This document shows, piece after piece, positions 1,297-15,814 of a DNA stretch of 15,814 nt (position 1 is its first letter; every line of letters starts with the position of its first letter). Location: the IMG/VR virus record IMGVR_UViG_2531839555_000011, positions 1 through 15,814 of that record; one strand, 5' to 3'. The notes beneath the pieces are model-generated. The model had not been told where the DNA came from, made no database searches, and was given only the letters and a program-made list of their open reading frames with translations. The DNA comes from a virus (lineage: Duplodnaviria > Heunggongvirae > Uroviricota > Caudoviricetes). Position numbers and translations under genes: made by a program.

Positions 1297-1348
1297 TAAC
1301 CCGCAAGTCATTCAAAATAACCCGCAACCTCTCCCAAATAACCCGCAA
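1297..1348. repeat. Three direct copies of aaaTAACCCGCAA at 21-bp phasing (candidate protein-binding array)
   Basis: TAACCCGCAA at 1297-1306, 1318-1327 and 1339-1348, each preceded by an A-rich tract. The 21-bp period puts the sites on one face of the helix. Interpretation as integrase arm-type or excisionase sites is inference. Confidence 0.6.
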
Positions 1349-1376
1349 ACACATCAGGAAAGTGGGGCCAGTGATG

Positions 1377-1497
1377 CCACCGATCCCCTTTATTTGGGGA
1401 TCGCGAGTAAGCCCCAAAATCTGGGTGTTGCTCTTACTACCCAAACTACGGGTAGTTTCCGTAGTTTCATGGTCGAGTTGCAAATCTGCAACTCACC
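1377..1497. repeat. 121-bp structured direct repeat, copy B
   Basis: About 94% identical to 943-1063. Hairpins CGATCCCC-TTTATTT-GGGGATCG (perfect 8-bp stem), AAACTAC-GG-GTAGTTT and GAGTTGCA-AATC-TGCAACTC. Lies immediately right of the TAACCCGCAA array. Confidence 0.8.
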
Positions 1498-1833
1498 CAC
1501 CAGCCAACCCATTTTTGGGCCGTCGGGAATATCAACAAGTTAGCACAGAAATAACTCAGGCAGATACAAAACTCAATTTTGAGGTTTGCTTATTATTCAG
1601 TTGGTTAACATCCCTCAAAACTGAGGACTGTACCCAAAACTATTCTTATAGCTCCGGCCTCAGCCGTTGGCTTTTCCCGAAAATATCAGTCAGTTACGTT
1701 AACCGCTAATTTCTGCCTTTGGTGTGAATACTGTCGCTTTAACCTACGGTAATTGTTCTGCCTCGGTGCGTGTCACCGCCGTAACCGCGCCAGTAAAACC
1801 CACAGATTCGTGGTTTTCCTGAATATCAGGAAT

Positions 1834-2127
1834 CTACCGCCGCAACCGTTCCGGCTTCTTCCACTGGTAAGTATTTTTCGCGCTCTCCCTCCGTTGTTGA
1901 GAACGGCGACGGTATGCCAGCAACTCAAGGACTCTGGTTCGTATGTTGCGCATATCCACGCCGTTAAGCTCAATAACGTCACGGCGCATCACCTTAGCCA
2001 CCACACGCGCGTAATTTTCAGCGGTGACGGTATCCGGCTGCTTGGCCTCCGGTTTGCCTGTTGCCTGGCAGACTCCGGTAACGCAGCGAATTATTTTTAG
2101 TAGATCGGTTTCAGTCATTCTCGTCAT
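1834..2127 (-). CDS. Hypothetical basic 97-aa protein coupled to the large terminase
   Basis: ATG at 2127-2125 overlaps the terL stop (2126-2124) as ATGA. Arg/Lys-rich C-terminus. No family recognised. Confidence 0.45.
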   Translation of the reverse strand: MTRMTETDLLKIIRCVTGVCQATGKPEAKQPDTVTAENYARVVAKVMRRDVIELNGVDMRNIRTRVLELLAYRRRSQQRRESAKNTYQWKKPERLRR

Positions 2128-3785
2128 ACCCCATCAAATGCCGCTAGTCGCTCTTTCTGGCTGTCGCTCATATCAAATGCAAATTCCTCATGCTCAGCCT
2201 GGAATGTGCCAAACGCCATCAGCGCCGCAACGCTCGGGTCTATCTTGTTGGATGATTTTTTCTTGTTCGGCTTGATATTGGCGTTCGCGTCACTCTGCAT
2301 CACAACATTACTCATTGACCAGGCCAGCACCGGATCACCACGATGCACAATCACCTTCCGGTTAACAAAAACCTCGAACGATTTCGCCGCCGGACTGAAA
2401 CGAAGGTAGGTTTGAGGGAACGGCTCCACCTCAAAGCCTGCCCCCTGTAACTGCGTTCTCAGGTGCGTGGCGTTCCACGTATCAAAGCCCACCAGCCTGA
2501 TATTGAAATTCTCTGCATCCGCCATGATGTCATCACGGATACGGTCATAATCAATGCAGTCACCCGGTGTTGTGCGTATCCAGCCCGCCTTTGCCCACTG
2601 GCGATAGATGGCGCGGTTTTTATTGGCGGGGTTCTGTAGCTGAAATTCCGGCAGATAGTGACGAGAAACCAGCATAATGGTTTTACCAACCGGAAAGGCA
2701 TAGCACACGCTGGAGATGTCGCTTGTAGATGATAAATCAAGCCCCGCGTAACACTCCTGACCGTGTAAATCTTCCTCCGTGAACGTTCCGGCGCACTCAG
2801 CCCATGCACCGTTACCCATCCACGGCGTAGCCCCCTGACACCAGATATTGAATCGCTTGGTGAGCATTTCCACCCACTGCGACGGAATACCCCGCGCTTT
2901 CTGGATGGTTGAGGCCAGTTTTTCACGATCTACGGAAACATCGATATTGGGATTCGCCTTTATCCACATCGCCGGATCGTCAACCTCGCTTTCATCATCC
3001 AGCTCATAAATCAGAACGAACATGGATTCGTTCACCTCTTCACCATCCAGTATCTGGCAGCAATAGTCGTAGTGTTGTTTACAGGCTGAAACAACGTTGC
3101 TCCCCGATGTGGTGATGGCAAATAACAGCCCCTCCGGGCGTGCCCCCATTCCCAGTTCAAGCGCGGAATAAACCCCGTTGTCAGGGTGGAGGTGATATTC
3201 ATCCACAATGGCAAGACTCGGGTTTGTACCTTCAATGGTTGCTGCTTTTGCTGCCAGTGGCTTTAACAGACTGTTGGTTTTCGGGTGTATCACCTTGTGT
3301 GCCTGAATATTTACCCGCTTTCGTAACGGTCGGGATAAAAGGCACATCTGACGCGCATCATCAAACACGATCCGCGCCTGATCACGACTCACGGCGGCGG
3401 TGTAAATATCCTGCTGCCCGTTTTCCATAACCAGAAACCAGTTAGCCAGGATAGCGGCGACCGTGGATTTGGCATTTTTTCGCGGAACTTCAATGAATGC
3501 GCTGGTGTATTTGCGCCGTCCGGTGGCCTTAACCTTAAAGCCCAGGATGCACGCAAAGGCGAACTGCTGCCACGGCTCCAGCTCAATGGGGCTACCGCGC
3601 ATTGCGCCTTTTACGTGCGGACACACCCTGGAAAAGGCAATAAACCGCTCCACGACCTCCGGATCGAACGTGTAAAGGGGGTTTTCAAGGTCAGAAAAAT
3701 ACCGTTTAACGGCCTGTTTCAGTCGTTTACAGGCCGTAATTTTGCCGTTTTTTACGCCTTCTGCGTACTCATGCCAGGCGGTCAA
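2124..3785 (-). CDS. Terminase large subunit
   Basis: 553-aa ORF with N-terminal ATPase and C-terminal nuclease regions typical of phage large terminases. Apparent TTG start at 3785-3783 preceded by a GAGGA Shine-Dalgarno; overlaps the terS 3' end by 17 nt. Confidence 0.9.
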   Translation of the reverse strand: MTAWHEYAEGVKNGKITACKRLKQAVKRYFSDLENPLYTFDPEVVERFIAFSRVCPHVKGAMRGSPIELEPWQQFAFACILGFKVKATGRRKYTSAFIEVPRKNAKSTVAAILANWFLVMENGQQDIYTAAVSRDQARIVFDDARQMCLLSRPLRKRVNIQAHKVIHPKTNSLLKPLAAKAATIEGTNPSLAIVDEYHLHPDNGVYSALELGMGARPEGLLFAITTSGSNVVSACKQHYDYCCQILDGEEVNESMFVLIYELDDESEVDDPAMWIKANPNIDVSVDREKLASTIQKARGIPSQWVEMLTKRFNIWCQGATPWMGNGAWAECAGTFTEEDLHGQECYAGLDLSSTSDISSVCYAFPVGKTIMLVSRHYLPEFQLQNPANKNRAIYRQWAKAGWIRTTPGDCIDYDRIRDDIMADAENFNIRLVGFDTWNATHLRTQLQGAGFEVEPFPQTYLRFSPAAKSFEVFVNRKVIVHRGDPVLAWSMSNVVMQSDANANIKPNKKKSSNKIDPSVAALMAFGTFQAEHEEFAFDMSDSQKERLAAFDGV

Positions 3786-4125
3786 GCTCGTCCTCTTCCT
3801 CTGTTTCCGGTGGATTTCTGCGGCGGCTTACCGGGTCAAAACCCAGCAAAGAAGCCATTTTGATCATTATTCTTTCTGCGTCAGCCTTTGCGCTCAGGGC
3901 GGGGTTTCTGCTCTCGCTGCCCTGACTGTTAACAATGCTGAACCCGCGCGTCGCAAGGTCTTCGACGGCTTTGCGGTATATGGAGTAGTTAACACAATAC
4001 AGTTCCAGATTGCTCCAGTCGGCGGGGGTAAGGTCTTCCCGCCCGGAAAGCTGGCGCGATTTTTCCTTCCACTGCCTGACCGCGATTTCATCCAGGTAAG
4101 CGGGGGCTTTTGGTGGTCTTGCCAT
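3769..4125 (-). CDS. Terminase small subunit (P27-like)
   Basis: Start placed at the internal ATG (4125-4123) giving MARPPKAPAYLDEIA..., a typical P27-family small terminase N-terminus. The upstream part of the track ORF is a poly-Gly artefact of a G-run. Confidence 0.8.
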   Translation of the reverse strand: MARPPKAPAYLDEIAVRQWKEKSRQLSGREDLTPADWSNLELYCVNYSIYRKAVEDLATRGFSIVNSQGSESRNPALSAKADAERIMIKMASLLGFDPVSRRRNPPETEEEDELDRLA

Positions 4126-4412
4126 GTTTTTTTTCGCCCAATTATTTTCAAAAAAATTACCGTGCACAAAAATTTGAGGGGGCGGTCGGTGTCCGGCAGG
4201 GACGGTTTCGTCCTGAAAACCACCCCCACCCCCTCTGACGGCCTCACCAGCGATTGCGAAAACATTCCATGACCTCGCGGTCACGGTCGGTTAATCGCTT
4301 CGCTGTGGTGCGTTTTGTGCGCCCTGTCCTGTTGGCTTTGTGCTCTGTCTCCTGTGTCTTCCATGTGTCACGCTGCCTTATCAGTCCACGTATCAGCCTG
4401 GTTTGCTCCTGT
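4126..4412. other. Candidate cos / packaging-initiation region
   Basis: Non-coding gap between HNH and terS, the position cos occupies in HK97-type genomes. Contains a G/C-rich nested dyad, GAGGGGG (4176-4182) ... CCCCCTC (4229-4235) with an inner GGACG-gttt-CGTCC hairpin, next to A/T runs. Assignment is inference. Confidence 0.3.
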
Positions 4413-4853
4413 TCAGTCATCATCGCCATACATCCAGTCGTTACGGTGTGCCGCCCGTTCTTCCTGCTCGCGATACATGCCCGCTTTACGGTTTGCTTTC
4501 GTGGCTGGATCTTCCCGTGTCGTCTTACGGTTGTGGCACGTCTGGCACAATGCCTGGTGATTCCACTCAGGCCAGAAGAGAACATCACCGCCGCCATTGA
4601 TGGGAATGATGTGATCCACCACAAGAGCTGGCGTATAAATCCCCTTAGCCAGACAACGCACGCATAACGGGTTTTTGCTCAGGTACAGGGCGCGGTATTT
4701 GTCCCACTGTCGGGAATACCCGCGCGCGCGGCGGTGTCCCCGTCTGGCATCCTCTGCACGCCATGCAGCCCGCCTGTGCTCTTCACACTTGCCGGACTTC
4801 ACGCGCTTATTACAGCCAGGCTCAGTGCATCGCCTTAATGGTTGCCACGGCAT
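4413..4853 (-). CDS. HNH endonuclease (terminase-associated)
   Basis: 146 aa with Cys pairs and the H..N..H / CxxCHxxK pattern (VVDHIIPINGGGD...LCQTCHNRKT). Sits immediately upstream of terS as in HK97-like cos phages. Its ATG overlaps the connector stop by 1 nt. Confidence 0.9.
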   Translation of the reverse strand: MPWQPLRRCTEPGCNKRVKSGKCEEHRRAAWRAEDARRGHRRARGYSRQWDKYRALYLSKNPLCVRCLAKGIYTPALVVDHIIPINGGGDVLFWPEWNHQALCQTCHNRKTTREDPATKANRKAGMYREQEERAAHRNDWMYGDDD

Positions 4854-5155
4854 CAGTACACCCCTACGTCACGATAAACTGACCAGAGCGCAGAAATAGC
4901 CATAGGCAGTTCCGAGTGCTCCACTGGTGAAACCGCTTCCCGGTTCTCGTACAGGAAAGCGATGTACATCAGGCAACCAACACGCATTGCCGGGGTAAAT
5001 TCCAGCCCGTCTTCAAAACGTTTCCCGATATGCTTCTGGCAGGCTTCCAGCGCCGCATCGGTATACATTTTCAGAAGTTCGCCTTCACCGGATAAATCAT
5101 CATCAAGTCGAAGATGTGCCCTGACTTCATCAGGTGTAATTCTGGCTTCACTCAT
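4853..5155 (-). CDS. gp6-like head-tail connector / head completion protein
   Basis: Start at the internal ATG 5155-5153 with GGAGAA Shine-Dalgarno, 100 aa. Carries the family-typical LRLDDD...YENRE signature. Confidence 0.8.
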   Translation of the reverse strand: MSEARITPDEVRAHLRLDDDLSGEGELLKMYTDAALEACQKHIGKRFEDGLEFTPAMRVGCLMYIAFLYENREAVSPVEHSELPMAISALWSVYRDVGVY

Positions 5156-6362
5156 CTTTTCTCCCTTTAATTTCCACAGTCTGTTTCCATGCCTGGCTGA
5201 ACTCATCACCACCTTCACGCGGCGGCATACCCTCACGCTCACGGGCTTCGTTCGGATTCATGATCCCGTTCTTAATCCCTTTCTCATACGTGGCATAACG
5301 TTCGGTGGGTGTGGCGCGTAATAAATCGGCTGAATCAAACTCAACCAGATAACGGGTACCAGGTACGGGAGAAGCCACCAGCAAAGCGGCCTTGATTTGC
5401 TGTTCGAAGTTCGCCAGCCACGGGCGCATTGTCATGGTCAGAAACGCGCGGCTTGCCTCGCTGAAATTGCTGTAGGTGCTGTTGCTGTATTCCTGCAGAA
5501 AAATAGGCGATACGTTGAACATGCGGGCGATGTCTTCAATGGAGAAGCGACGGGAGGCCAGCCATTCCGCATCCTGGTTACTCATTCCCAGTTGCCTGTA
5601 ATCCATGCCCCCTTCAAGGATTGGCGTTTTTCCGGCATTTTTCGCCCCCTTGTAGCGTTCCAGAGCATCCAATGCCTGTTTACCTTTCACGCCGTCCAGC
5701 CATTCGCCTGACGTGATAATCCCTGCCGCCATCATGCCATCTTTCATAATGCTGGCTCCGTGGCGCTGTTGAGCAAGGCCAAGCCCAAGTGCCTCACGGC
5801 AAATCGTGACGGGGGAGCGCCCCAGAAAGCCATCATCCGAGGCATAGCGGAGATGCAGAACTTCTTCCTGTAAATACGTGCGCACCGTTCCTGTATAGGG
5901 TTCGGTGATGGTATAGCGGTATTTGTGTGCGCCTGTGCGTTCCGGTACAACACACCCCGGCGCATAAGGATGAAGTGATTTTGGCTGCCCGTCCTGCCCC
6001 CACTCAATAACCGCATAGGCGTTACCGTTCAGCAGGCAGTGACGCATCATTGTGCGTTTAAACTGGTAAGGTGTCTGGCACGAATTAGGCTGCTCATTCA
6101 GCAGAATATCTACCGGGTGACTGTCCAGCCATTCCCGCGCCTCCCTTCCCTTGTCATTACGTACCAGATACAGATAACACGGCATCGTGGCCACCGCCTC
6201 AGCGATGACAGAAACCGCATTCATCACTGCAGGCAATGATTCAGCCGTCCCGGCAGAAACATATTCTCCGGATCCGGTATTCGGTACGCCGGACAGCGCC
6301 AGAAAATCATCAATGGACAGGTTACGCTGCTCGCTTTTTTTACGACTAAAAGGCCACCACAT
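5148..6362 (-). CDS. Portal protein (HK97 family)
   Basis: Start placed at ATG 6362-6360 (MWWPFSRKK...), directly after the protease stop; the longer track ORF would overlap the protease by about 90 nt. About 404 aa with a portal-like central region. Confidence 0.9.
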   Translation of the reverse strand: MWWPFSRKKSEQRNLSIDDFLALSGVPNTGSGEYVSAGTAESLPAVMNAVSVIAEAVATMPCYLYLVRNDKGREAREWLDSHPVDILLNEQPNSCQTPYQFKRTMMRHCLLNGNAYAVIEWGQDGQPKSLHPYAPGCVVPERTGAHKYRYTITEPYTGTVRTYLQEEVLHLRYASDDGFLGRSPVTICREALGLGLAQQRHGASIMKDGMMAAGIITSGEWLDGVKGKQALDALERYKGAKNAGKTPILEGGMDYRQLGMSNQDAEWLASRRFSIEDIARMFNVSPIFLQEYSNSTYSNFSEASRAFLTMTMRPWLANFEQQIKAALLVASPVPGTRYLVEFDSADLLRATPTERYATYEKGIKNGIMNPNEAREREGMPPREGGDEFSQAWKQTVEIKGRKDE

Positions 6363-6363
6363 A

Positions 6364-6924
6364 TCACAACCCCGCCAGCTCAGACCAGCGATGACGATTA
6401 TTTCCTGTCGGGCATAATTCAGGGTGCTGTGCAAACAACGAACGGTGGGCAATCTCCACGCCAGATTCTGGATAAGCAGGCATCGACGTTATTGTGATTT
6501 CACGGAGTTCAGCGGCGGTTACGGTACGCAAATACGGTTTTTGCGCGATACTCCACTCCTCGCATAATGCGCGAAAACCAAAGCTCATTCCTGTAATGTC
6601 GCCACGCTCCACCAGCGTAAGCACATCTTTTCCAAGCTGGGTATCCGGCGGTGTCAGTTCAAAACGTAACCCGGTGTTATCCTCAGTCAGTACCAGAGTG
6701 CCGGATTTGGTGCGCCCCAGCAGTTGGGTATAGTCATGCTCATACAGGCAGCGCACATCATTACCCGCCGCCAGATAGTCAGCAAAAGCCCCCGGCGTGA
6801 ACTGTTCGCGGAATTCGTCCCAGATAATTTCTGAAAGGCTGTTCCAGCGAACGGCATACCCCACCAGCTTTTTATTGCTGGCGGTCAGTTCAGATGTGCG
6901 GATTTCAAAATCGGTGTTTTTCAT
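6364..6924 (-). CDS. Prohead maturation protease (HK97 family)
   Basis: 186 aa, GGAGT Shine-Dalgarno; sequence pattern (GYAVRWN...GAFADYL...LYEHD...GMSFGF...ITSMPAYP) typical of HK97-type prohead proteases. Confidence 0.9.
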   Translation of the reverse strand: MKNTDFEIRTSELTASNKKLVGYAVRWNSLSEIIWDEFREQFTPGAFADYLAAGNDVRCLYEHDYTQLLGRTKSGTLVLTEDNTGLRFELTPPDTQLGKDVLTLVERGDITGMSFGFRALCEEWSIAQKPYLRTVTAAELREITITSMPAYPESGVEIAHRSLFAQHPELCPTGNNRHRWSELAGL

Positions 6925-6930
6925 CGGTGT

Positions 6931-6966
6931 ACTCCATAAAGCTGAAAAAGGAGGCCGCAGCCTCCT
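6931..6966 (-). terminator. Possible partial terminator/attenuator between capsid and protease genes
   Basis: GC hairpin AGGAGGC-cgca-GCCTCCT (6949-6966) followed on the minus strand by TTTT, 13 nt after the capsid stop. Could tune capsid to protease/portal stoichiometry. Confidence 0.35.
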
Positions 6967-6978
6967 CCTTACTCATGA

Positions 6979-8148
6979 CTAGCCAGCTTTCATTTCCAGA
7001 ATTTTGATGGCGTTTGAATCCACCACACCACCGCCCAGATATTTATCCGTGTGGACCTTGTAGAATCCGGGTTCAGTAATGTTGTCCGGTCGGGTGCGAA
7101 TCCCTGTTACATGATCAACGATGAAATAACCACGACTGAAATCGCCAACCGCTAGCGGTGCTTTTCCTGCGCCGATGTCCGGCATGGACTCCAGGCAGTA
7201 AACAGGACGACCAAGCAACATATCCGGCGCACCTTCTTTAAGGCTGTCGCGCCAGATATAATCGCCGTTCTCATTTTTCAGCTTCTGTAGTGTCCCTGCC
7301 GTGCCCGAGTTCATCACCCAGACGGCATTTTTGCGGTATTTCGCTTTCAGCTTGTAGAGAATGTCGATCAGTTCGTCCGCTGTAATGGCGGTTCCACTTG
7401 CCGCTACTATTTTTTCAATGGTGCCAAAAGCGCGGGTTTTGTCACTGGTCGCCGCACGGGTGTAAGCCATGAAGCCTTTCGGCTTGCCGTTACCGTCGCC
7501 ATTAACAAAATCATCCTCTTCGGTGCTGGCGAACGTGTCGGCAATTTCGGAGGATAACCAGCCCAGAATATCCACCTCTGAAAAATCCAGGATTTCCTGC
7601 GTGGTTTTCGGGTAGGCGTAGATCGGATTCAGCTTGATGGTTACGCGTTCAATTTTCGGGGTGTTGGTTTCACTGCGTGCGCTGCCTTCTGTGCCTCGTC
7701 CTACAGTTGCGCCGCCAGTGGAAACCAGTTTCTGAAACTCATTTGATTTTGCGGTCTTCACGGTCGCGATCACGCGCATAACACTGTCATCCTGTAGCTG
7801 GCGCATGACTTCGCGATCAAGCTCAGGAATTACGGTATATCCGCCATCCCTGCCGCTGTCAGTGCTGGTGGACAGTGATCGCACATCTCCGGTTACGATG
7901 TAGTTACGCAATTCATCAGATGATAATTTCTGGATGCCCGTTCCTGGCTTGCTGCGTTCTTCATCAGCCACAGACTCGAGGCGGGAAATTTCTGTGTCGA
8001 GGGCATCAGCTTTTGCACGCAGTTCATCAAACTGTTTGCCTTCTTCAGCGTTCAGACTACGGTTTTCACTGTCGGCTTTTTCCAGCAGGGATCGCATCTG
8101 GTTTTTCAGGGCGTTTTTTTGCTGGCGGAGTTCGATTAATTTCTTCAT
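6979..8148 (-). CDS. Major capsid protein (HK97 fold) with N-terminal scaffolding-like coiled coil
   Basis: 389 aa. N-terminal about 100 aa is charged and coiled-coil-like (delta-domain-like); C-terminal core has HK97 MCP-like motifs (AVGDFSRGY). Confidence 0.9.
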   Translation of the reverse strand: MKKLIELRQQKNALKNQMRSLLEKADSENRSLNAEEGKQFDELRAKADALDTEISRLESVADEERSKPGTGIQKLSSDELRNYIVTGDVRSLSTSTDSGRDGGYTVIPELDREVMRQLQDDSVMRVIATVKTAKSNEFQKLVSTGGATVGRGTEGSARSETNTPKIERVTIKLNPIYAYPKTTQEILDFSEVDILGWLSSEIADTFASTEEDDFVNGDGNGKPKGFMAYTRAATSDKTRAFGTIEKIVAASGTAITADELIDILYKLKAKYRKNAVWVMNSGTAGTLQKLKNENGDYIWRDSLKEGAPDMLLGRPVYCLESMPDIGAGKAPLAVGDFSRGYFIVDHVTGIRTRPDNITEPGFYKVHTDKYLGGGVVDSNAIKILEMKAG

Positions 8149-8375
8149 GAAGGTTTTCTCGTATTGGTTAAGATTCAGGACGTGAAACCAACACGGAGGG
8201 AGCGCCGCCCGACACTCTCGGCATCTCGCAGATCAACCCGGCATCGCGCAGGGGGTCAGGCGGCATTGTGGCGGCTCACGTCTGAGTGCCACACGCCAAC
8301 ATATACATAAAAATCAGTATGTAAATATCAGCCAGAATCACTGAACAGCCAGAAACAACCACGAACAAATAATTT

Positions 8376-8410
8376 ACAAAACCTGAAAAGAAAACCCGGA
8401 AAAATCCGGG
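8376..8410 (-). terminator. Rho-independent terminator ending the replication operon
   Basis: On the minus strand, CCCGG-atttttt-CCGGG followed by TTTTCTTTTCAGGTTTTG, 12 nt after the stop of the 82-aa gene. Confidence 0.6.
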
Positions 8411-8421
8411 CCTTTATCGCT

Positions 8422-8670
8422 TTACTGTTTCATGGAATCCCGCATTCTGCGTCTTATTTTCCACAGATATTCGATCATCGCTTCCACCTGCTCACGGTTG
8501 GTTGCGAAAATTTCCCCGGTCAGTGAGCTGCGCAGAAAATCATGATGATCCACAACAAATAACGCATCGGAAGAAAGCAGACGGCGATATTTTTTTGCTG
8601 TCGTGGTTTCCAGATCATCAATACCATGAAACTTTTTATGTTGCTGAACTTCTTCAAATGTCACTGGCAT
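8422..8670 (-). CDS. Hypothetical 82-aa protein
   Basis: ATG at 8670-8668 with a strong AGGGGG Shine-Dalgarno at 5-nt spacing; followed by a terminator. No family recognised. Confidence 0.6.
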   Translation of the reverse strand: MPVTFEEVQQHKKFHGIDDLETTTAKKYRRLLSSDALFVVDHHDFLRSSLTGEIFATNREQVEAMIEYLWKIRRRMRDSMKQ

Positions 8671-8687
8671 GTATCCCCCTGTTATCG

Positions 8688-9110
8688 CTAAAAGGGTATG
8701 TTATCCCCATATGGATCATCATTCCCCGCCTGTTGCTTAGCCCTATTTAGAGCGTCAGTAGCCTGGCCCTGCTGGCCTTTTTTGCCACCAGGTCGCGCCG
8801 TTCTGGCACTGATTACGCTGTCTGCGATAACCTGCCAGCCCTGCCGCGTTTCCCCGTTCTGTCCGGTCCACTGGCTCACCTGCATGTTACCCGCCACGCT
8901 CAGGAGTTCACCCTTGCGGTGCTTTGCCAGTGCTTCGGCCTGTCTGCCAAACGCCAGGACGGATAACCACATCGTCGCCGTTCCGTCATCTGCCTGGCTG
9001 CACGGCAGGGTGACCGCCATGCTCGCCATAGCCATTTGTGTGCCCTTGCTGGTGGTCTTTAACTGTGGGTCAGCCACCAGCCGCCCGTAAGCCGCTATCT
9101 GTGCTGTCAT
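8688..9110 (-). CDS. Single-stranded DNA-binding protein-like
   Basis: 140 aa, OB-fold-like N-terminus, Gly/Gln-rich linker and an acidic C-terminal tip DDPYGDNIPF resembling the SSB ...DDDIPF tail. GGAGAG Shine-Dalgarno; ATGA overlap with the upstream 81-aa gene. Confidence 0.75.
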   Translation of the reverse strand: MTAQIAAYGRLVADPQLKTTSKGTQMAMASMAVTLPCSQADDGTATMWLSVLAFGRQAEALAKHRKGELLSVAGNMQVSQWTGQNGETRQGWQVIADSVISARTARPGGKKGQQGQATDALNRAKQQAGNDDPYGDNIPF

Positions 9111-9352
9111 GCTGTCTGCTCTCCGGTTTTAACGTTGATGGTTGTCACCTGTTCCGCTTCGGCAATCTCCCGTTCTGTCAGCGTGGCAAAGTTTGCAGCT
9201 GCCGTTGTCATGAATGAGCTAATCAGTTCGGGATGTGCTTTCGCATATCCTTCCCCGGCGTTGCGGTCGATGATTTTTATCGACACCCTTAACCAGTGTT
9301 CCGTCAAATCAAGGGCGTGCGATTGTGATTTTTTTGTGTGCTTCGCTGTCAT
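9107..9352 (-). CDS. Hypothetical 81-aa protein
   Basis: ORF translationally coupled (ATGA) to the SSB-like gene; weak Shine-Dalgarno. No family recognised. Confidence 0.5.
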   Translation of the reverse strand: MTAKHTKKSQSHALDLTEHWLRVSIKIIDRNAGEGYAKAHPELISSFMTTAAANFATLTEREIAEAEQVTTINVKTGEQTA

Positions 9353-9402
9353 AGGCTTTATCTCACAGCAGTAAATTAAAATTTTTGCGTTTTAACCCTT
9401 CA

Positions 9403-9626
9403 CCTGTTCACCTTTTGATATTTTATCTTTTAATTCATAATGTTAAGGGGTGAACAGTTTCACAAAAACTATTCACCAACTGTTCACCACTGTTCACCCT
9501 TGAAGCTCAATAAACAATCAAAAAGGTGAACAGTGAATAGTTTGGTGAACAGTTCATAAATAACTGTTCACCCTATAATATACTGATACAAAAGATATTT
9601 ATGACAGGGTGAACAGTGGTGAACAG
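9403..9626. repeat. Iteron-type replication origin (9 copies of GGTGAACAG/CTGTTCACC)
   Basis: Exact 9-mers at 9403, 9449, 9480, 9490, 9525, 9544, 9564, 9608 and 9618 in both orientations plus partial copies, with an AT-rich tract at 9574-9606, immediately 3' of the primase-helicase gene. Confidence 0.8.
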
Positions 9627-9639
9627 TTATTCCATAAGT

Positions 9640-11457
9640 TTAATTTTTGCTATCGTCATTAGTGACCGATACACATGATGGCATCCAGTCTTCTGATTCC
9701 TCCGTCAGTGTCACGTTTGAACGCAAACCGTGCTTCGTTTTCCGTTTCATATACTCCCTGCCATATTCCGCCATTGCCCCCGGCATATCTTTACCGAAGC
9801 GCGTCAGTGTTACAGGTTTACCAAACCCATGTGCCTTCATATAAGCCAGATAGGCATGATAGAGATACCTGCGCGGGCTGAATGGCACAATTTCAGCATT
9901 ACCCACTAACAGGCCATCACACATTACCGACGCCATGAGATAGCCGCAGAAGTCCACCAGCGAATCCCCCTCTCGCTTTATCGCCAGTGCTTCTTCAGAT
10001 TTCTGCTGCTCATATAACAGGCGTCTGGCTTCGTCCTGGTCAGCAAACCGTGTAAGCAGATGGCGAATCACTACCGCCAGCTCACCTTCTATTTTTTCCG
10101 CCAGCATTGGATCACGTTCGTTCTCCGGTACAACTTCCGAAAAATTGAATATCACCCGACGACGTGAGATCCCCCCGCTGCGGTCACTGAATGACATGGC
10201 GTTATTGTTAACCGCCAGCACTACTGCCGGAATACGCGTTGAGTAGGGGGCTTTGTGTTTCGGGTCAATTGCCACCTTGTCACCGCCTGTAATAGCCTTA
10301 ATCCCTGCCCCATCACCAGCGTAGCGGGTCATATCCGGCATGATAATCAGCGAAAAGCCAACCACTAACGCGCGTTCCCTTGCATCTTCCAGCGCCTTCA
10401 TGCTTGCCGATACTGTGTTGGCCTTACCCGCCAGCATGGTGCAAATCTCCGCCATCACGCTTTTACCACTTCCCCCTGGACCTGTTACCTCAATGAATAA
10501 CTGCCAGTCGTACCGGTTCGCCAGCACCATGAATAATGCAGCCAGTACGCGATCCGCCTTGCGGTCATTCTCAGCCACCGAACGGCGTAACCACTTCCAG
10601 AAATTCGGCGCATGTGTTGCCAGCGTTTCCCCCTCTGCTGGTGGGCTGAAAGGTAATTCACTGGCAATTAACAACCAGTCGTTTTTGTTATGCTCCCGAA
10701 AATTACCTGTTCTGGTATCAAATACCCCGTTACTGAATCCAATCAGGTTACGGGCTGTATTCCCCATTACAGGCAAACTTAACTTCATGGTATCGACCGC
10801 CGATTTAATGGCGTTCTGCGAATAGCTGATCTCCGCATCAATGAAAATCTGCGCCATAGCTCGCTGTAATTCTTTATCCTGTACTGGCTCCCATACAACG
10901 CCGTTGTAATGGTGAACAGTGTCAGAGTCGGCATGAATCGCCAGTTCACCGCCATAATGTGCCAGGAGAACTTCGCCGCGTTGACTTGCTCCCATCTGGT
11001 TAAGCGCCAGTGATGAAGCGTTATCGTCTTTTACCCGCTCTTTTTTCTTTACAGGCAGTTCAACTACCTTTTTCTTTTCCGCCAGCTCTGCCCGTTCACG
11101 TTCCAGATATTCGCGCCAGTTCTCCCGTTTCTGGCTGTGCATTCCTTCAGAGTAATAATCAGCATCCCTGACACCTGCCGCTGCCAGTTTCTGCCCGATG
11201 GTATTAACAAGCCCCGGACGCAATAACCCCGCCTGATAGAGACGCACGCGATAGCGTCCGTCCGGTACGATTTGCAGGTTGTCCAGTTCGGCAAGTTGTT
11301 GCTCTCCAAGCCAGACAGGAGGCACGTTATCGCCAGCCAGTCGCCCGTCCTGTTCCTGCCACTGTTTCGCATGTGCCCACGCATCACTACCCGCAAAAAT
11401 GATGACTTCCGTCATTTTGTCACGCGGCTGGTGTTTTAAATTTGGCGCTTTTTTCAT
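9640..11457 (-). CDS. Replication initiator: primase / SF3 helicase
   Basis: Start at ATG 11457-11455 (MKKAPNLK...) with GGAGAG Shine-Dalgarno; Walker A GPGGSGKS and Walker B-like LIIMPD; about 605 aa. Domain architecture consistent with P4/PICI primase-helicases. Confidence 0.85.
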   Translation of the reverse strand: MKKAPNLKHQPRDKMTEVIIFAGSDAWAHAKQWQEQDGRLAGDNVPPVWLGEQQLAELDNLQIVPDGRYRVRLYQAGLLRPGLVNTIGQKLAAAGVRDADYYSEGMHSQKRENWREYLERERAELAEKKKVVELPVKKKERVKDDNASSLALNQMGASQRGEVLLAHYGGELAIHADSDTVHHYNGVVWEPVQDKELQRAMAQIFIDAEISYSQNAIKSAVDTMKLSLPVMGNTARNLIGFSNGVFDTRTGNFREHNKNDWLLIASELPFSPPAEGETLATHAPNFWKWLRRSVAENDRKADRVLAALFMVLANRYDWQLFIEVTGPGGSGKSVMAEICTMLAGKANTVSASMKALEDARERALVVGFSLIIMPDMTRYAGDGAGIKAITGGDKVAIDPKHKAPYSTRIPAVVLAVNNNAMSFSDRSGGISRRRVIFNFSEVVPENERDPMLAEKIEGELAVVIRHLLTRFADQDEARRLLYEQQKSEEALAIKREGDSLVDFCGYLMASVMCDGLLVGNAEIVPFSPRRYLYHAYLAYMKAHGFGKPVTLTRFGKDMPGAMAEYGREYMKRKTKHGLRSNVTLTEESEDWMPSCVSVTNDDSKN

Positions 11458-11753
11458 TTCTGCTCTCTCCACGCGGCAATCATGTTTTTCAGTTCCTGTA
11501 GTTTTTTATCAACATCCATACATGACACATGGTTATTTCTGGAAAGCGGGATTTCCCGCCGGAATCTGCAAATAAAGATCTCCACGTTCAGCGAACTATG
11601 AAATGAATAGCCATCACGAATAAAATAAACACGGTCAAACATCAGCTCTTTTACCGTTACTCTGTTACCGTTCTTATCCAGATAAATAGCGCCGGGGATA
11701 ATTTTTGGGTGTGCATAACCGCTGGCAGTCAAGCCAGATAAATATGTTCTCAT
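11454..11753 (-). CDS. Hypothetical 99-aa protein coupled to the primase
   Basis: ATGA overlap with the primase start. About 38% GC, lower than the element backbone. No family recognised. Confidence 0.55.
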   Translation of the reverse strand: MRTYLSGLTASGYAHPKIIPGAIYLDKNGNRVTVKELMFDRVYFIRDGYSFHSSLNVEIFICRFRREIPLSRNNHVSCMDVDKKLQELKNMIAAWREQK

Positions 11754-11759
11754 GATTAT

Positions 11760-12080
11760 TTATCCCCGATTTGAATCAGTATTCGCTTTCTTTATGGCAT
11801 TTAATGCATCTGTGGCATTATCAATGGTGCACCGTAACGAAATATCAAACTGCCCAAGCATTGCCAGTAACAAGCCAATATTCCCCATGTCAATGCGCAT
11901 AGCCTTTTCGTCATATTCCTCATTTTCTGACGCATACCACATCAGGTTACCAATTGACGCAACAGCCATTGATATATTGTCAGTAGCCGCATCCGCAGCA
12001 GAATAAACCTTTTTAGCAATATCATGCTCACAGTTAAAATGCGGATTAATCAGGTACTGGTAATTGGTCATGTCAGGCAT
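11760..12080 (-). CDS. Hypothetical 106-aa acidic protein
   Basis: Strong AGGGGGG Shine-Dalgarno before ATG 12080-12078; AT-rich coding sequence. No family recognised. Confidence 0.55.
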   Translation of the reverse strand: MPDMTNYQYLINPHFNCEHDIAKKVYSAADAATDNISMAVASIGNLMWYASENEEYDEKAMRIDMGNIGLLLAMLGQFDISLRCTIDNATDALNAIKKANTDSNRG

Positions 12081-12276
12081 GGCACCCCCCCTGACGAATA
12101 CGGGCGGCGAATACCATCACGCAGCCAGCCGGGGATTGCTGGCGTGCTTCCTGTTCGCTGGTGGCCTCAATGGTAATCACGCGCGGTTGTGCCGTGCTCA
12201 GGGCGATAAAACGCCAGATGTATTTATTCAGGTTGTGCGAGTCCCGCCCTTGCGGGTGTGTGGTATGATTTAACAT
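12073..12276 (-). CDS. Possible 67-aa first gene of the leftward operon
   Basis: Internal ATG 12276-12274 of a longer spurious ORF, preceded by GAGGT at 5-nt spacing; overlaps the start of the 106-aa gene by 8 nt. Composition unusual, so low confidence. Confidence 0.4.
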   Translation of the reverse strand: MLNHTTHPQGRDSHNLNKYIWRFIALSTAQPRVITIEATSEQEARQQSPAGCVMVFAARIRQGGCHA

Positions 12277-12312
12277 AGCTACCTCGATACTTCTGCTATC
12301 GTTGGTGGTTAG

Positions 12313-12356
12313 ACGCCCCGTTACTGCTCCTACAGTGCGGGGCGTTGTTTTTTGTG
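12313..12356 (+). terminator. Hairpin plus T-tract in plus orientation (leader structure or terminator)
   Basis: ACGCCCCG..ACTG..CAGT..CGGGGCGT followed by TGTTTTTTGTG. It lies in the 5' leader of the leftward operon and upstream of the Arc-like gene; function ambiguous. Confidence 0.35.
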
Positions 12357-12370
12357 TAATGGTAAGTACA

Positions 12371-12419
12371 ATGGTAATTACCATGTAACTATAGTAATTA
12401 AGGGTAATTACCATGTCAA
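12371..12419. promoter_or_regulatory. Palindromic operators overlapping divergent promoters
   Basis: ATGGTAATTACCAT (12371-12384) and GGTAATTACCAT (12403-12414) 30 bp apart, plus degenerate half-sites. On the minus strand TTGACA (12419-12414), a 17-nt spacer and TACTAT (12396-12391) form a sigma70-like promoter with the second operator inside the spacer. Confidence 0.5.
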
Positions 12420-12586
12420 CACCATTAGAGAAACGATCGCCACCATACCAAATGCGACTACCAGAAGAATTTAGAGCGCAACTTGAGGAGGCAGCCAAGG
12501 CAGACGGCGACACCTCATTAGCTACTTGGATTAAACGAATACTCCGCAAAGAATTACAACAGCGCGGTATCGAGCCCAAAGGCTGA
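12413..12586 (+). CDS. Arc/Mnt-like ribbon-helix-helix repressor (57 aa)
   Basis: Translated by hand: MSTPLEKRSPPYQMRLPEEFRAQLEEAAKADGDTSLATWIKRILRKELQQRGIEPKG. The P-x-Y/F-x-M/L-R-L/W-P...IxxRIxxxL pattern matches the P22 Arc beta-strand plus two helices. Too short for the 60-aa ORF track; only plus-strand gene in the element. Confidence 0.7.
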   Translation: MSTPLEKRSPPYQMRLPEEFRAQLEEAAKADGDTSLATWIKRILRKELQQRGIEPKG

Positions 12587-12680
12587 CAGCCAACCAGCAA
12601 GCCAGCACACTGATCACATTGCCCACCAGCCGCAAATGTGGCATTGTTGGTGATGCGTTCAAGTTTAGTGTGTATCCATT

Positions 12681-12709
12681 GGCGACCGCCCCCGGTCGCC
12701 TTTGTTTTA
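12681..12709 (+). terminator. Rho-independent terminator (possibly bidirectional)
   Basis: Perfect 8-bp stem GGCGACCG-cccc-CGGTCGCC followed by TTTGTTTTAT; lies between the converging Arc-like and ORF6N genes. Confidence 0.7.
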
Positions 12710-13390
12710 TGCGCGATCATGTGCCGCCTCCCACTCATATTTATCGAAATCAATCTGCCCCATCGCATCTACCAGCCGTACCGCCGGACGCAGAACTTTG
12801 AGTTCCTTCTTGCGGAGATTCATTCCATTACTGCCCTGTGAGCCATGAAACTGCTTAGAATGCTTGTCCGCACGAGTCACGGCGTTTTGCGCATCAGTAA
12901 CCGGCATGGCGATCAGTTCTTCGAGCGACGGCAGATCCACATGATGGAAAGTGACAAACTCCGGGCAACGGAAATAAGCTTTCACGAGCTGGCGCTGTAC
13001 CTGCCAGGCCAAATCATCGTTAAACGGTTTGGTCAGCAGCAGATAGCCTGATTCCGTAATCAGTGTTACGCGGCCACGTATCGGACTGTTCATTTTTTTG
13101 CCAGGGCGTTTAATGCCCCTGTCTAAATATCCAGCCCCTCCCCATTCGACCTCTGACGCGCCGACAATAAAAAAGTCCTCACCATCAATGAAGCGAGTGC
13201 GATTACGCTGAAAAGTCTTTTTAGCCGTGTCTTTAGGTCGCTGGTGCGCGGTATCGATCATTGCGAACGTCACCACGCGTTGCCCGTGAAATTCGACGGC
13301 AGGAAACTGTTTAAGCTGCACGCTAATATCGCTTTTACTGGCAACAGGGTGAGCGAATCCCTGCCCGTTAAGGGCATTAATATTTTTCAT
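12707..13390 (-). CDS. ORF6N-domain antirepressor-like protein
   Basis: 227 aa. N-terminal GQRVVTF..ID..HQRP...FQRNRTRFIDGEDFF ... TESGYLLLTKPFNDDLAWQVQRQLVKAYFR matches the ORF6N signature of phage antirepressors as I recall it. 20 nt downstream of the AlpA-like gene. Confidence 0.75.
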   Translation of the reverse strand: MKNINALNGQGFAHPVASKSDISVQLKQFPAVEFHGQRVVTFAMIDTAHQRPKDTAKKTFQRNRTRFIDGEDFFIVGASEVEWGGAGYLDRGIKRPGKKMNSPIRGRVTLITESGYLLLTKPFNDDLAWQVQRQLVKAYFRCPEFVTFHHVDLPSLEELIAMPVTDAQNAVTRADKHSKQFHGSQGSNGMNLRKKELKVLRPAVRLVDAMGQIDFDKYEWEAAHDRA

Positions 13391-13410
13391 CTCTGATTAC
13401 CTGTGGTTAA

Positions 13411-13695
13411 TTAAGCAGATTTGCGGCTGTACGGGTTATTGACGTTTTCCACGGCAGGCGGATTACGAACCCACCAGAGCACATCCGAAAGAAGCCAGGC
13501 ACAGCTGTTGCGGCCAAAGTGACAGCGCGGCGGGAAGCGCCCCTGCTGTTCCATCTTCCAGCGGCTCGAACGAGAAAGACTGGTGATCTCGCTGCATTCA
13601 TCTTCGCGGATTCGGCGATCGAACTTGAAGCCGTACTCCTCCAGAATGGTGCGGCGTTGTTCAGGATTTGGCGGGGTAAAGGTGATAATTTGCAT
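13411..13695 (-). CDS. alpA: AlpA-family regulator/excisionase-like protein
   Basis: Start at internal ATG 13695-13693 with GGAGG Shine-Dalgarno. C-terminal SLSRSSRWKMEQQGRFPPRCHFGRNSCAWLLSDVLWWV matches the AlpA helix-turn-helix pattern (LSRSTIYR..G.FP.P...G.R...W...E...W). Confidence 0.8.
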   Translation of the reverse strand: MQIITFTPPNPEQRRTILEEYGFKFDRRIREDECSEITSLSRSSRWKMEQQGRFPPRCHFGRNSCAWLLSDVLWWVRNPPAVENVNNPYSRKSA

Positions 13696-13790
13696 GTTGC
13701 CTCCACTGTTTCTAAGTTTGTGGGGGCTATTGTTATCCTTGTGATTGGATGTCACACTAGACGAAAATTAAATTGTTTTGACCACCAAGA

Positions 13791-14594
13791 TTAAGGAAGA
13801 ATTTTTCTATCCTGAAGTTCTGACCTGATTTTTTCTATAGAAGAAATTGAGAAGATTTTTTCTATATTTGGCTTTACGGTTTGCGCTATCTGCGTTGAGT
13901 CATACTCTCCGTTCGGAAACACAGCCACAGCAAGCACGCCATTGGTGACGCATGCCCCGCGAGATTTAGCCCAGATCATCAAATCAACCACGGGGAAAAG
14001 TGAATAATCGTATACCTTTTTTTTAATTGTTTCCCATGACTGGTATGTTTTTTCCTTTTCTTTTATTTTTAATTCCTCACGCCAATTCTTGAGGTTTTTT
14101 TCAAACACATCAATCAATAAATCATCCGGGCGTGACAAATCAACTTTAATAAAAAGGTCATTTGGTTCCAAAAATGAGCTAACACTTGTAAATGAATGGT
14201 AAACTAAATTTTCAGCCGTTCCCGTAAAATTATTTTCCATATAATTATCTACAGCATCTTTCATATAAATAAAGTCTTCAATGGACATTGGTCGTAACGC
14301 AACCCCACCAGACAAAACACCTTCTCTTTTAATAGGAAGTTTAAACGCATCATAGAAGTACGTAGCTCTATCAATCGCATTAGCGACCGCGCCATTTCCA
14401 AGTATCCTTCCTACTTCATCGTTATTTGTAAGAGGTTCATTATAAAAAGACCCGCCATATCGATAGAAGTTTTCAAGCATGTCATATCTAACAACCAACT
14501 GATAAAATAAGTCTTTATCTGACATGCCAATAAATTGAGTGTAGTTATCTAAATCAAACCATGTTGGCAAATCTTTTTTGTGGCTAATTCTCAT
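13791..14594 (-). CDS. AT-rich 267-aa cargo protein of unknown function, coupled to int
   Basis: 804-nt ORF; 60-nt samples give about 25-45% GC against about 50% in int. ATG 14594-14592 overlaps the int stop as ATGA. No recognisable catalytic or DNA-binding motifs. Confidence 0.7.
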   Translation of the reverse strand: MRISHKKDLPTWFDLDNYTQFIGMSDKDLFYQLVVRYDMLENFYRYGGSFYNEPLTNNDEVGRILGNGAVANAIDRATYFYDAFKLPIKREGVLSGGVALRPMSIEDFIYMKDAVDNYMENNFTGTAENLVYHSFTSVSSFLEPNDLFIKVDLSRPDDLLIDVFEKNLKNWREELKIKEKEKTYQSWETIKKKVYDYSLFPVVDLMIWAKSRGACVTNGVLAVAVFPNGEYDSTQIAQTVKPNIEKIFSISSIEKIRSELQDRKILP

Positions 14595-15814
14595 TTTTCA
14601 CCAGCCTTTAAAATAACGATATTAGAGTGATTACCCGCGAGAAGTTCTAAGCGGTCATACCACTTGTTCAGCGCGTCCAGCTTCTCCGGTAAGTAAAGAC
14701 TACGGTTATAAATCGCCATAACTCCCGGCAAGGCATGGCCCAACAGCAGCTCGACTATATGCGGTGCTATACCCATATTGTTTAGCCCCGTAGAAAACGT
14801 CCGACGCAGATCGTGAAGTGTCCACGGCTCGTTATGGTGAAAATCTTTAAAAAGCCTGCGCCCTTTCAATGATACAGCCTGACGGGTACGATCTTCGCCC
14901 AGTAACAAACCTGTTTTCCCTGTCTCGCGCTTTAACTCTTCCAGCCACGGGCGTATAGCTTCAGGTATCGACCTCACGATTTTCTCTCGGGTTTTGCTAT
15001 GCTCTTTCGGTACAGTCCAAATCCACGATGTAAAATCCCACTCTGACCATCGAGAAAGGCGAACTTCCATCGTTCGCGCACCAAAAAGCACCAGCATTTT
15101 GAGCAGACGTGAATAATACGGCTGCTGATCATCGCTATCTGTACAGCGCCACACATCAGCCAGCTCGCTATCTGACAATACGCGATCACGTTGACCAGAT
15201 GGCTGGCCTACATCCTGAATGGTGAGAAAGGCCAGAGCATCACTGGCAGCATAACGGCGAACCTTGCAGAAACGTAACGCCTGTTTAGAAATCTGGAACA
15301 TGCGGCCGGCGGTCATGGGTTTAGTCTGGTTTATTTCGTCAAAACAGGCCACCCAATGGCGGGTTTCACATCTGGTGATCGGATAACGACCAAGGCGCGG
15401 GTAAATATGCTTGCGTAGCTGCGCCCTCACCAACGCCTCATCACTGCGCTTTCTCCTGGCGTAATTCACCAACCAATATTCCAGGGCGTCTTTAACCGTT
15501 ACAGGCTTAAGCGTTTCTTCTGTGCTCAGCTCAATCTCAGTTTTCGGATCAAGCCCACCAGCCAGCCACTGGCGACACTGTTCCCGCTTTTCTCGCGCAA
15601 GTTTTAGCGGCATATCAGGGTAACGGCCAAGCGTTAAACGTTCGAGTTTGCTACCCCTTCCTCCCAACCGGTATGAAAATACCCAGCTAACGTTACCTTG
15701 CTTCGAGACCTTAACGCTTAGCCCCTCACCATCGGCAATCATGATCGGCGCTTCACGCTCAGAACCCAGCAATGCTTTTAGCTTTTTGTCGCTCAGTTTG
15801 TTTGTGCCAGCCAT
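14591..15814 (-). CDS. int: Tyrosine integrase, P4-like family
   Basis: 407 aa starting at the window edge (ATG 15814-15812). N-terminal arm-binding-like region (GEGLSVKVSKQGNVSWVFSYRLGG...), C-terminal catalytic residues (HDLRRT, LLGHA, a Tyr near the C-terminus). Confidence 0.93.
   Translation of the reverse strand: MAGTNKLSDKKLKALLGSEREAPIMIADGEGLSVKVSKQGNVSWVFSYRLGGRGSKLERLTLGRYPDMPLKLAREKREQCRQWLAGGLDPKTEIELSTEETLKPVTVKDALEYWLVNYARRKRSDEALVRAQLRKHIYPRLGRYPITRCETRHWVACFDEINQTKPMTAGRMFQISKQALRFCKVRRYAASDALAFLTIQDVGQPSGQRDRVLSDSELADVWRCTDSDDQQPYYSRLLKMLVLFGARTMEVRLSRWSEWDFTSWIWTVPKEHSKTREKIVRSIPEAIRPWLEELKRETGKTGLLLGEDRTRQAVSLKGRRLFKDFHHNEPWTLHDLRRTFSTGLNNMGIAPHIVELLLGHALPGVMAIYNRSLYLPEKLDALNKWYDRLELLAGNHSNIVILKAGEK

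Follow-up and report, generated by a model that had tools for sequence, protein, structure and literature searches.

The immI region of phage P22 carries two ribbon-helix-helix (RHH) repressors, Mnt and Arc, in a layout of tightly packed opposed promoters, with an operator between the -10 and -35 elements and an antisense RNA, sar, at a ribosome-binding site (RBS). In plasmid pMV158/pLS1, the small RHH repressor CopG acts at a promoter while antisense RNAII is directed at the translation-initiation region of the replication gene. Phage-inducible chromosomal islands (PICIs) spread virulence, resistance and anti-phage genes, and in Gram-positive cocci their activation by a helper phage hinges on control through a master repressor. 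For the PICIs of Gram-negative bacteria, the founding 2018 paper left it unclear whether a global repressor exists, with the activator AlpA as the sole known regulator (PMC6092414). Here we describe a regulatory locus in a 15,814-nt stretch of viral DNA (IMG/VR record IMGVR_UViG_2531839555_000011, positions 1 to 15,814; hereafter the window), a capsid-forming PICI (cf-PICI) by its gene content, in which a 57-amino acid (aa) RHH protein probably represses the replication operon from twin palindromic operators (O1 and O2).

The locus resembles P22 immI in having a putative RHH repressor, opposed promoters, an operator in a promoter spacer and a predicted antisense RNA on the RBS of an operon gene. 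It differs in holding one RHH gene rather than two, the product of which is below the threshold of the Pfam Arc family; in that the operon is that of a satellite, with an Icd-like gene and a primase gene, whereas in P22 it is a phage antirepressor gene; in that the antisense RNA, without a relative in Rfam, is aimed at the first gene; and in that two separate palindromes lie ~30 bp apart, where P22 has one 21-bp site. With pMV158 the locus shares dual control of replication-gene expression, by an RHH repressor and a predicted antisense RNA, and CopG is among the fold matches of the 57-aa protein. However, copG is co-transcribed with repB in the plasmid, whereas here the repressor would be read from a facing promoter on the other strand, and the setting is an integrated phage satellite with a D5-type primase and an apparent iteron origin.

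A leftward early promoter, an operon ending in a primase gene and leader RNA control are also found in satellite P4 (P_LE and the CI immunity RNA), and an Icd-like first gene recalls immI of phage P1 (c4 RNA-icd-ant). The leftward promoter of the window (P_left) corresponds in position to P4 P_LE, because the RHH module of a Pasteurella relative lies directly upstream of C4 and isrK RNAs. Unlike P4 and P1, the window is without a C4 or isrK match, and its predicted RNA lies on the opposite strand, as a true cis-antisense RNA; neither P4 nor P1 is known to have a protein repressor at the corresponding early promoter. As with Stl of the Staphylococcus aureus pathogenicity islands (SaPIs) and Rpr of Gram-positive PICIs, the gene is divergent from the replication operon and its presumed role is silencing (PMC6092414). 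Stl is a larger helix-turn-helix (HTH) protein inactivated by helper proteins, whereas here a 57-aa RHH protein co-exists with AlpA-type activation. Members of the YlcI/YnfO family (NF041551; Pfam DUF3950, uncharacterised) hold the same slot, with the same geometry of promoter and twin repeats, in a sister satellite (locus L001) and in EcCICFT073, which serves as the model PICI of Gram-negative bacteria; the window protein, however, scores 19.1 bits against this family (cut-off 30) and is 31% identical to the L001 protein, and the EcCICFT073 repeat is unrelated to the window operators. A literature search found no description of a repressor, or of this module, for Gram-negative PICIs. Later surveys list such genes just as HicB, YlcI/YnfO or accessory genes (among them PMC13612085, with a toxin-antitoxin (TA) listing), and a paper on the gene zones of satellites mentions immunity RNAs and not the RHH module. 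Control of the P22 immI or CopG/RNAII kind is undescribed for these satellites.

The regulator gene, its palindromes and two facing promoters

A preliminary description of the window, made without database searches, had proposed a small Arc-like repressor gene with two palindromes over the promoter of a leftward replication operon. The features concerned are as follows.

12413-12586, plus strand: RHH regulator gene, 57 aa, ATG start, product MSTPLEKRSPPYQMRLPEEFRAQLEEAAKADGDTSLATWIKRILRKELQQRGIEPKG
12371-12384, no strand: O1, perfect 14-mer ATGGTAATTACCAT, over the predicted P_left start and overlapping the P_right -10 and start
12402-12414, no strand: O2, GGGTAATTACCAT, core GGTAATTACC at 12403-12412, in the 17-bp spacer of P_left and abutting the RHH start codon
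12359-12370, no strand: O3, weaker ATGGTAAGTACA, centred 12 bp left of O1, over the P_right spacer and -10
12391-12419, minus strand: P_left, -35 TTGACA 12419-12414, 17-bp spacer, -10 TACTAT 12396-12391, score 10/12
12345-12372, plus strand: P_right, the RHH gene's own promoter, -35 TTGTTT 12345-12350, 16-bp spacer, -10 TACAAT 12367-12372
12073-12276, minus strand: Icd-like gene, 67 aa, first gene of the leftward operon, NCBIfam phage_ICD_like 69.9 bits, RefSeq annotation

By its pattern of substitution, the 57-aa ORF (open reading frame) is a genuine conserved gene. Compared with the copy in an O157:H7 satellite it shows 24 synonymous and 2 non-synonymous codon differences, distributed 2/0/25 over codon positions 1/2/3, and from this ratio and positional bias purifying selection is clear. 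A public protein search returned 108 homologues at 63-95% identity, in Enterobacterales (including Escherichia), Pasteurellaceae (Pasteurella), Aeromonas and Oceanimonas.

The GGTAATTACC cores of O1 and O2 are 30 bp apart, about three helical turns, which bears out the second, upstream copy of the preliminary description. Within the 15.8-kb window GGTAATTACC and GGTANNTACC are restricted to these two sites, where 0.34 occurrences of the core with one mismatch and 0.10 of GGTANNTACC would be expected by chance; no good further operator sites occur elsewhere in the window, and operator-like sites near int and alpA were discarded as chance-level matches with 3 mismatches. The gene start had been placed inside the palindrome, which holds insofar as the ATG overlaps the last two bases of the extended O2, while the core is clear of it. 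The evidence for O3, a site overlooked at that stage, is weak (82% identity within its repeat family, 2 mismatches); few of the other loci, a minority, have a similar site at 11-12 bp to the left of O1. An additional weak copy of the palindrome lies at 12391-12400.

The regulator gene was placed in 60 loci by a scan of one genome per species, with a replicate set from IMG/VR; protein and operator classes were counted over 62 placed loci. In more than 100 related loci both promoters, the two palindromes and the distance between these are conserved. A palindrome stands at the O2 position in nearly all related loci, and an upstream copy of the locus's own start-proximal site was found in 67 of 72 distinct regions, mostly 30-31 bp away. 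Over the 62 loci, the sequence class of the operator follows the class of the N-terminal segment and beta-strand of the protein.

Protein class [YF]QMRL (window PYQMRL): operator GGTnnnTACC, 29 of 33 loci
Protein class YQ[IL]RL: operator TGTAATTACA, 13 of 16 loci
Protein class QFPMRL: operator GGTATATACC, 13 of 13 loci
Protein class PFQFRL: TGTGTAATTACACA-type operator, a perfect palindrome in 2 of 4 loci, with related imperfect sites read in the other two

A matching trend emerged from the IMG/VR loci, and these patterns support the view that the twin palindromes behave as operators of the 57-aa protein. The firmer contrasts between operators are those of GGT..ACC against TGT..ACA, ATAT centres and GTGGcCCAC. 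The palindrome GGTACGTACC of L001 was rejected as proof of altered specificity; window-class proteins in L027 and L032 also adjoin GGTACGTACC, and the centre of the site thus varies within a class.

P_left is of the sigma-70 type and heads the operon of the Icd-like gene, hyp106, DUF4222 and primase, with a predicted start near 12384, as the preliminary description had claimed when it put an operator in the spacer of a minus-strand TTGACA-17-TACTAT promoter driving the small genes and primase. Its -35 is held on the opposite strand by codons 1-3 of the RHH gene (ATG TCA AC). P_left is unusually well conserved: among 54 distinct related regions TTGACA lies at an equal offset from the ATG in 46, and P_left scores at least 10/12 in 39, with a spacer of 17-18 bp and a -10 of the type TAnnnT. 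The RHH gene's own promoter, P_right, had gone unmentioned. It is the best plus-strand promoter in window-type loci (8/12) and is predicted to be weaker than P_left, with its start near 12379, within O1; the Shine-Dalgarno (SD) sequence of the gene is AAGGG at 12400-12404. Across loci the pattern is TTGTTT or TTGCTT, 16-18 bp, then TACAAT, TAAAAT or TATAAT, and such a -10 lies at -46/-47 from the ATG in 26 of the 54 distinct regions. Because P_left and P_right face each other with predicted starts ~5 bp apart, they could not be occupied together.

The protein itself had been assigned the Arc/Mnt pattern. The RHH fold signature was upheld, whereas membership of the Pfam Arc family (PF03869) was not, with 16.9 bits against a cut-off of 20.4 (E 0.0057) over residues 9-32 only; at E<0.1 Pfam Arc matches 12 of 35 relatives, the best at 1.5e-4. 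The PHROG 228 profile, the name of which ('Arc-like repressor') is an annotation and not an experimentally established function, matches residues 6-55 (E=3e-7, 31.4 bits). An AF2 model made with 35 relatives has an extended N-terminus (residues 1-17) and helices at 18-31 and 36-50, at a pLDDT of 77, the N-terminal strand being coil in this single-chain monomer. In a Foldseek search against PDB most of the top 50 matches are RHH proteins, led by AmrZ (37% identity over 38 columns, rmsd 1.4), Arc, NikR, CopG and ORF56, with PutA, AtaR, ParD and MazE9 as further RHH matches. Between them, AF2 and Foldseek point to the RHH topology of beta-strand, helix and helix in ~45 residues. Profile comparison with hhalign aligns R8-T34 to Arc K6-S32 and brings residue 11 (P in the window, Q in most relatives), Q13 and R15 onto Gln9, Asn11 and Arg13, the DNA-reading residues of Arc. 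A PDB sequence search with the family profile returned spurious designed helical repeats as its top matches, with AmrZ at E=0.17, and was not used as support. We conclude that the window protein is an RHH protein of its own family, outside Pfam Arc.

Cassette alleles and a predicted antisense RNA

The clearest single argument for the palindromes as operators comes from cassette swapping. The L001 sister satellite is ~100% identical to the window on both flanks (AlpA, integrase and the rest of the element), and the difference between them is confined to the interval from the leader hairpin through the last codons of the regulator gene. In this interval L001 carries two GGTACGTACC palindromes, spaced by 33 bp and arranged on the promoter as in the window, together with a gene of the YlcI/YnfO family; the product of that gene has a GIEPKG tail in common with the window protein and passes NF041551 at 31.1 bits. 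The slot has other alleles in O157:H7 satellites and in EcCICFT073, where a YlcI/YnfO-family gene passes the same model at 67.4 bits and the leftward promoter, TTGACG-18-TATAGT, has two AGGTGTGGCCCAC repeats (GTGGcCCAC), one in the spacer and one over the -10 and start. An Arc-type repressor in this role had been called not the usual picture for enterobacterial satellites; that is fair to the literature and not to the genomes, in view of the allelic gene and shared geometry in EcCICFT073. Going by the genomes compared, the module is common but overlooked. In E. coli CFT073 (L073) the YlcI/YnfO-family gene of EcCICFT073 lies at 6120-6401, and a second small plus-strand ORF is found at 6459-6632.

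The cassette is also predicted to encode a conserved, structured plus-strand RNA, absent from the preliminary description, which would be antisense to the RBS of the first leftward gene and the region of which swaps along with the regulator allele.

12261-12269, plus strand: extended -10, TGgTATGAT, of the predicted antisense RNA promoter, inside Icd-like codons 3-5
About 12276-12356, plus strand: predicted ~80-nt cis-antisense RNA, covering the Icd-like start codon and SD sequence (12280-12286)

In an alignment of 37 sequences the T, A and final T (TAnnnT) of the hexamer TATGAT (12264-12269), which has a TG before it, are invariant while the inner bases vary. The RNA, the ends of which are predicted, would be perfectly complementary to the Icd-like SD sequence and start codon, with a 5' stem-loop around the anti-SD and a terminator hairpin (12313-12345) followed by a T-run that doubles as the P_right -35. 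RNAalifold on the 37 sequences gives three helices with 18 pairs, 11 of them with compensatory changes; the hairpin at 12313-12345 is kept with such changes, and the plus-strand fold is better in nearly every locus. Paired cells amount to 95.6%; shuffles gave 84% and slid controls 31-49%, and 0 of 500 shuffles matched the observed values. The strand test likewise favours the plus strand, with 95.6% pairing against 84.3% on the minus strand and 82 G.U against 7 A.C. For the window RNA (12274-12357) the minimum free energy is -37.4 kcal/mol, with z -5.8 against z -3.6 for the opposite strand. Rfam gave no match in the window, at gathering score or at E up to 10, C4 and isrK included. A C4/CI-type immunity RNA in the leader, which the Icd-like first gene had suggested, was rejected on that result and on the plus-strand orientation of the conserved hairpin.

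The Icd-like gene is thus the predicted target of both the RHH protein and the antisense RNA, and in most loci its start lies about 130-141 nt from that of the RHH gene. Across loci the first leftward gene comes from at least three unrelated families, of which the Icd-like family is one. Genes as different as the Icd-like ones of 58-68 aa, a family of 113-119 aa and a Pasteurella ORF of 314 aa begin with almost identical stretches of 6-8 codons, MA-N/D-x-N/D-S-N... (L006, L015, L030, L034, L040, L042, L057 and others), as may be expected if these codons are constrained by the embedded antisense promoter or form part of the swapped cassette. One satellite, in Pasteurella testudinis, combines protein and RNA immunity devices: immediately after the putatively RHH-controlled promoter, its first leftward ORF contains minus-strand Rfam C4 and isrK RNAs (L030, 3507-3723). 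E. coli 47-1826 and relatives (L002, 3815-4051; L064 and L067, ~7130-7803) have a 225-aa HNH endonuclease ORF, 'partial' in RefSeq, which has inserted next to the conserved leader/antisense block and captured the conserved 'ATGGCT' start context; the Icd-like gene on its other side is shortened to 52 aa.

Proposed control and alternative explanations

We consider it likely that the 57-aa protein is an RHH repressor that acts on O1 and O2 to silence P_left and is autoregulated, with the antisense RNA as a brake and AlpA as the means of induction. This reading is built on what was observed of the gene, its fold signature, the sites, the conserved promoters, the swapping of alleles and the covariation of the RNA. 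As a dimer, the protein would bind O1 and O2, and probably the weaker O3. Bound in the spacer of P_left (O2) and at its start (O1), it would shut the Icd-like, DUF4222 and primase operon in the integrated satellite; O1 and O3 cover the -10 and start of P_right, through which the repressor would limit its own synthesis. The ~80-nt antisense RNA would act as a second, post-transcriptional brake on the first leftward gene. From these features we infer binding, repression, transcript starts and RNA expression, as well as the read-through step by which AlpA would act. Two further features bear on the last step and on the isolation of the gene.

13411-13695, minus strand: AlpA homologue, PF05930 39.5 bits against a cut-off of 21, upstream and on the same strand as the leftward operon
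12681-12710, plus strand: intrinsic terminator of the RHH gene, GGCGACCG-CCCC-CGGTCGCC, then TTTGTTTTAT

Induction would most likely come from AlpA and not from the 57-aa protein. Leftward transcription driven by AlpA could run antisense through the repressor gene, lower the supply of repressor and continue into the replication operon. Such read-through is possible because no minus-strand terminator lies between the alpA/ORF6N unit and P_left; the stem at 12681-12710 has, on a reading of the sequence, no U-run after it on the minus strand and acts on the plus strand only. The same AlpA family mark is found in L067, and an ORF overlapping alpA in another frame (13407-13706, minus strand) had no profile matches and is regarded as a decoy. 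In EcCICFT073, transfer requires alpA, the expression of which depends on the helper; alpA activates downstream genes and on its own triggers excision and replication (PMC6092414). The preliminary description had called the 57-aa protein the element's master switch, a claim left unsupported by the presence of this homologue of an activator demonstrated in EcCICFT073, and we do not think that the protein is the sole master switch of the element.

Several points weigh against the reading we prefer. The RHH assignment is made of individually weak scores, with Pfam Arc and NCBIfam YlcI/YnfO both below cut-off and Foldseek E-values above 1, as expected for 57 residues. A promoter scan of the window alone is not above chance (3 sites against 3.0 expected), and P_left is credible because of its conservation across loci rather than through that scan; the transcript starts are deduced from hexamers. 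The loci behind the association between protein and operator classes are not independent in phylogenetic terms, and L031, L027, L032, L052 and L056 depart from it. The residue that best marks the classes, 14 (M/I/L/F), faces the core on the Arc alignment, and the true determinants of specificity may instead be sought in the N-terminal arm. Part of the conservation of O2 could serve the SD/ATG region and the -35, signals with which it overlaps. Lastly, since alpA alone induces the EcCICFT073 island (PMC6092414), any repression by the allelic protein there must be open to override.

If the 57-aa protein were itself a master repressor of the SaPI Stl type, it would be bound and inactivated by a helper protein, with AlpA as a later step. 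The gene and the replication operon diverge as do stl or rpr and theirs in Gram-positive PICIs (PMC6092414), the slot has several specificity alleles, as selection for particular helpers would be expected to produce, and a promoter as near to consensus as P_left needs a repressor. The requirement for alpA in EcCICFT073, its helper dependence and its sufficiency when cloned alone (PMC6092414) argue the other way, as do a length of 57 aa with no obvious sensor domain and a conservation of 63-95% from Escherichia to Pasteurella and Oceanimonas, unlike the fast divergence of Stl proteins. On balance we regard this role as unlikely. Far less probable still is a type II antitoxin of the HicB family, for which the palindromes would be autoregulatory and the Icd-like or another gene the toxin. 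Some sources do name homologues 'HicB family antitoxin', such genes appear among the TA modules of PICIs in one survey (PMC13612085), RHH antitoxins are among the fold matches, proteins of the Icd family inhibit cell division, to go by the family name, and in Erwinia the RHH gene survives amid TA genes without the rest of the satellite. The gene, however, is monocistronic and stands alone between two plus-strand terminators, one upstream and one downstream, which makes an antitoxin role unlikely: no partner is co-transcribed, and in all the contexts read the adjacent genes lie on the minus strand. The preliminary description had named an antitoxin with a toxin partner elsewhere as one alternative that would overturn its proposal, and the lack of a co-directional partner gene leaves that alternative unsupported. 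The protein also ends 7 residues past helix 2 in the AF2 model, leaving no C-terminal extension for toxin binding, and the Icd-like gene gives way to other families at the head of the leftward operon.

We give equally little credence to the idea that the palindromes are bound by AlpA, by the arm-binding domain of the integrase or by a host factor, or are just promoter and translation signals, with the protein acting elsewhere. The overlap of O2 with the SD/ATG and -35, and of O1 with a -10, would explain some of the conservation in this way. Against it, the repeat changes with the regulator allele between L001 and the window while AlpA, the integrase and the remainder stay ~100% identical, the palindrome class follows the small protein across genera in which integrases and primases differ, and no further good palindrome of this type occurs elsewhere in the window. 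Repression by the 57-aa protein from O1 and O2 therefore remains the reading we prefer. A wider extension of it can be offered tentatively: the cassette of RHH or YlcI/YnfO repressor, twin operators on a near-consensus early promoter and antisense RNA against the first early gene may possibly be a general, hitherto unrecognised immunity and repressor module of Gram-negative PICIs and cf-PICIs, EcCICFT073 included, in which interchangeable specificity alleles would set co-residence and cross-repression (heteroimmunity), and AlpA-driven antisense read-through would flip the switch.

The satellite, distribution of the module and its meaning

Between hpt and gcd, the minus strand carries genes assigned by Pfam to TerL, TerS, HNH, connector, portal, protease and capsid, and further genes for SSB, a D5-type primase, DUF4222, the Icd-like protein, an ORF6N/Bro-type protein, AlpA, DUF6387 and a tyrosine integrase. 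The small RHH ORF is the sole plus-strand gene of the regulatory region, placed between the int-DUF6387-alpA-ORF6N block and the Icd-like-to-primase block. A cf-PICI is recognised by an integrase, AlpA, a primase, its own capsid, protease, portal, connector, HNH, TerS and TerL, and satellite size (bioRxiv 10.1101/2025.02.11.637232). All of the listed genes were found in the window, which on gene content is a cf-PICI, and no tail or lysis genes were found among the ORFs scanned. In the gap after the primase gene (9400-9632) there are ~10 copies of GGTGAACAGT in both orientations, which resemble the iteron-type origin of replication known from PICIs. A Tatumella relative (L054, 7180-7249) has the Rfam int-alpA RNA (RF02996), which is absent from the window.

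Several satellites that differ in integrase, primase and late module carry the RHH gene, and its slot never varies. The identical 57-aa protein is recorded in 265 blocks of a public assembly collection, and at least 80% of the module, counting the window allele alone, is covered in 378 of 5426 complete E. coli genomes (~7%). The gene is common on satellite-sized IMG/VR contigs, while relatives are rare in true phages (4 of 50,697 phage records); bona fide phages were set aside as carriers on this count, the best of the four being a 15-kb 'phage' of satellite size. In Photorhabdus (L034-L038) the whole module of regulator, operators and leader occurs in tandem (~2775-2943 and 3989-4159), the copies ~1.2 kb apart with a 119-aa ORF between them, and the second regulator apparently starts at TTG. 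In Erwinia (L069-L071, 7594-8171) regulator, operators and leader persist without integrase, primase or capsid genes, surrounded by HipA and ParE/RelB TA genes, apparently as a remnant.

Annotation of the gene is uneven. It had been described as missed by the ORF track, and in O157:H7 genomes the intact ORF is indeed left unannotated, with a spurious pseudogene drawn on the opposite strand, whereas in some other genomes RefSeq names it a hypothetical protein (WP_000106746.1). At the E. coli O157:H7 locus L072 (9115-9288), for example, PGAP omits the 57-aa ORF and a 594-bp 'Icd-like pseudogene' spans the opposite strand. The regulator gene is absent or mislabelled in many genomes. Should the antisense RNA be expressed, it would constitute a new RNA family. 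The putative repressor would explain the silence of a near-consensus promoter before replication genes, and the locus provides a concrete and testable candidate for the repressor that accounts of Gram-negative PICIs have lacked since 2018.

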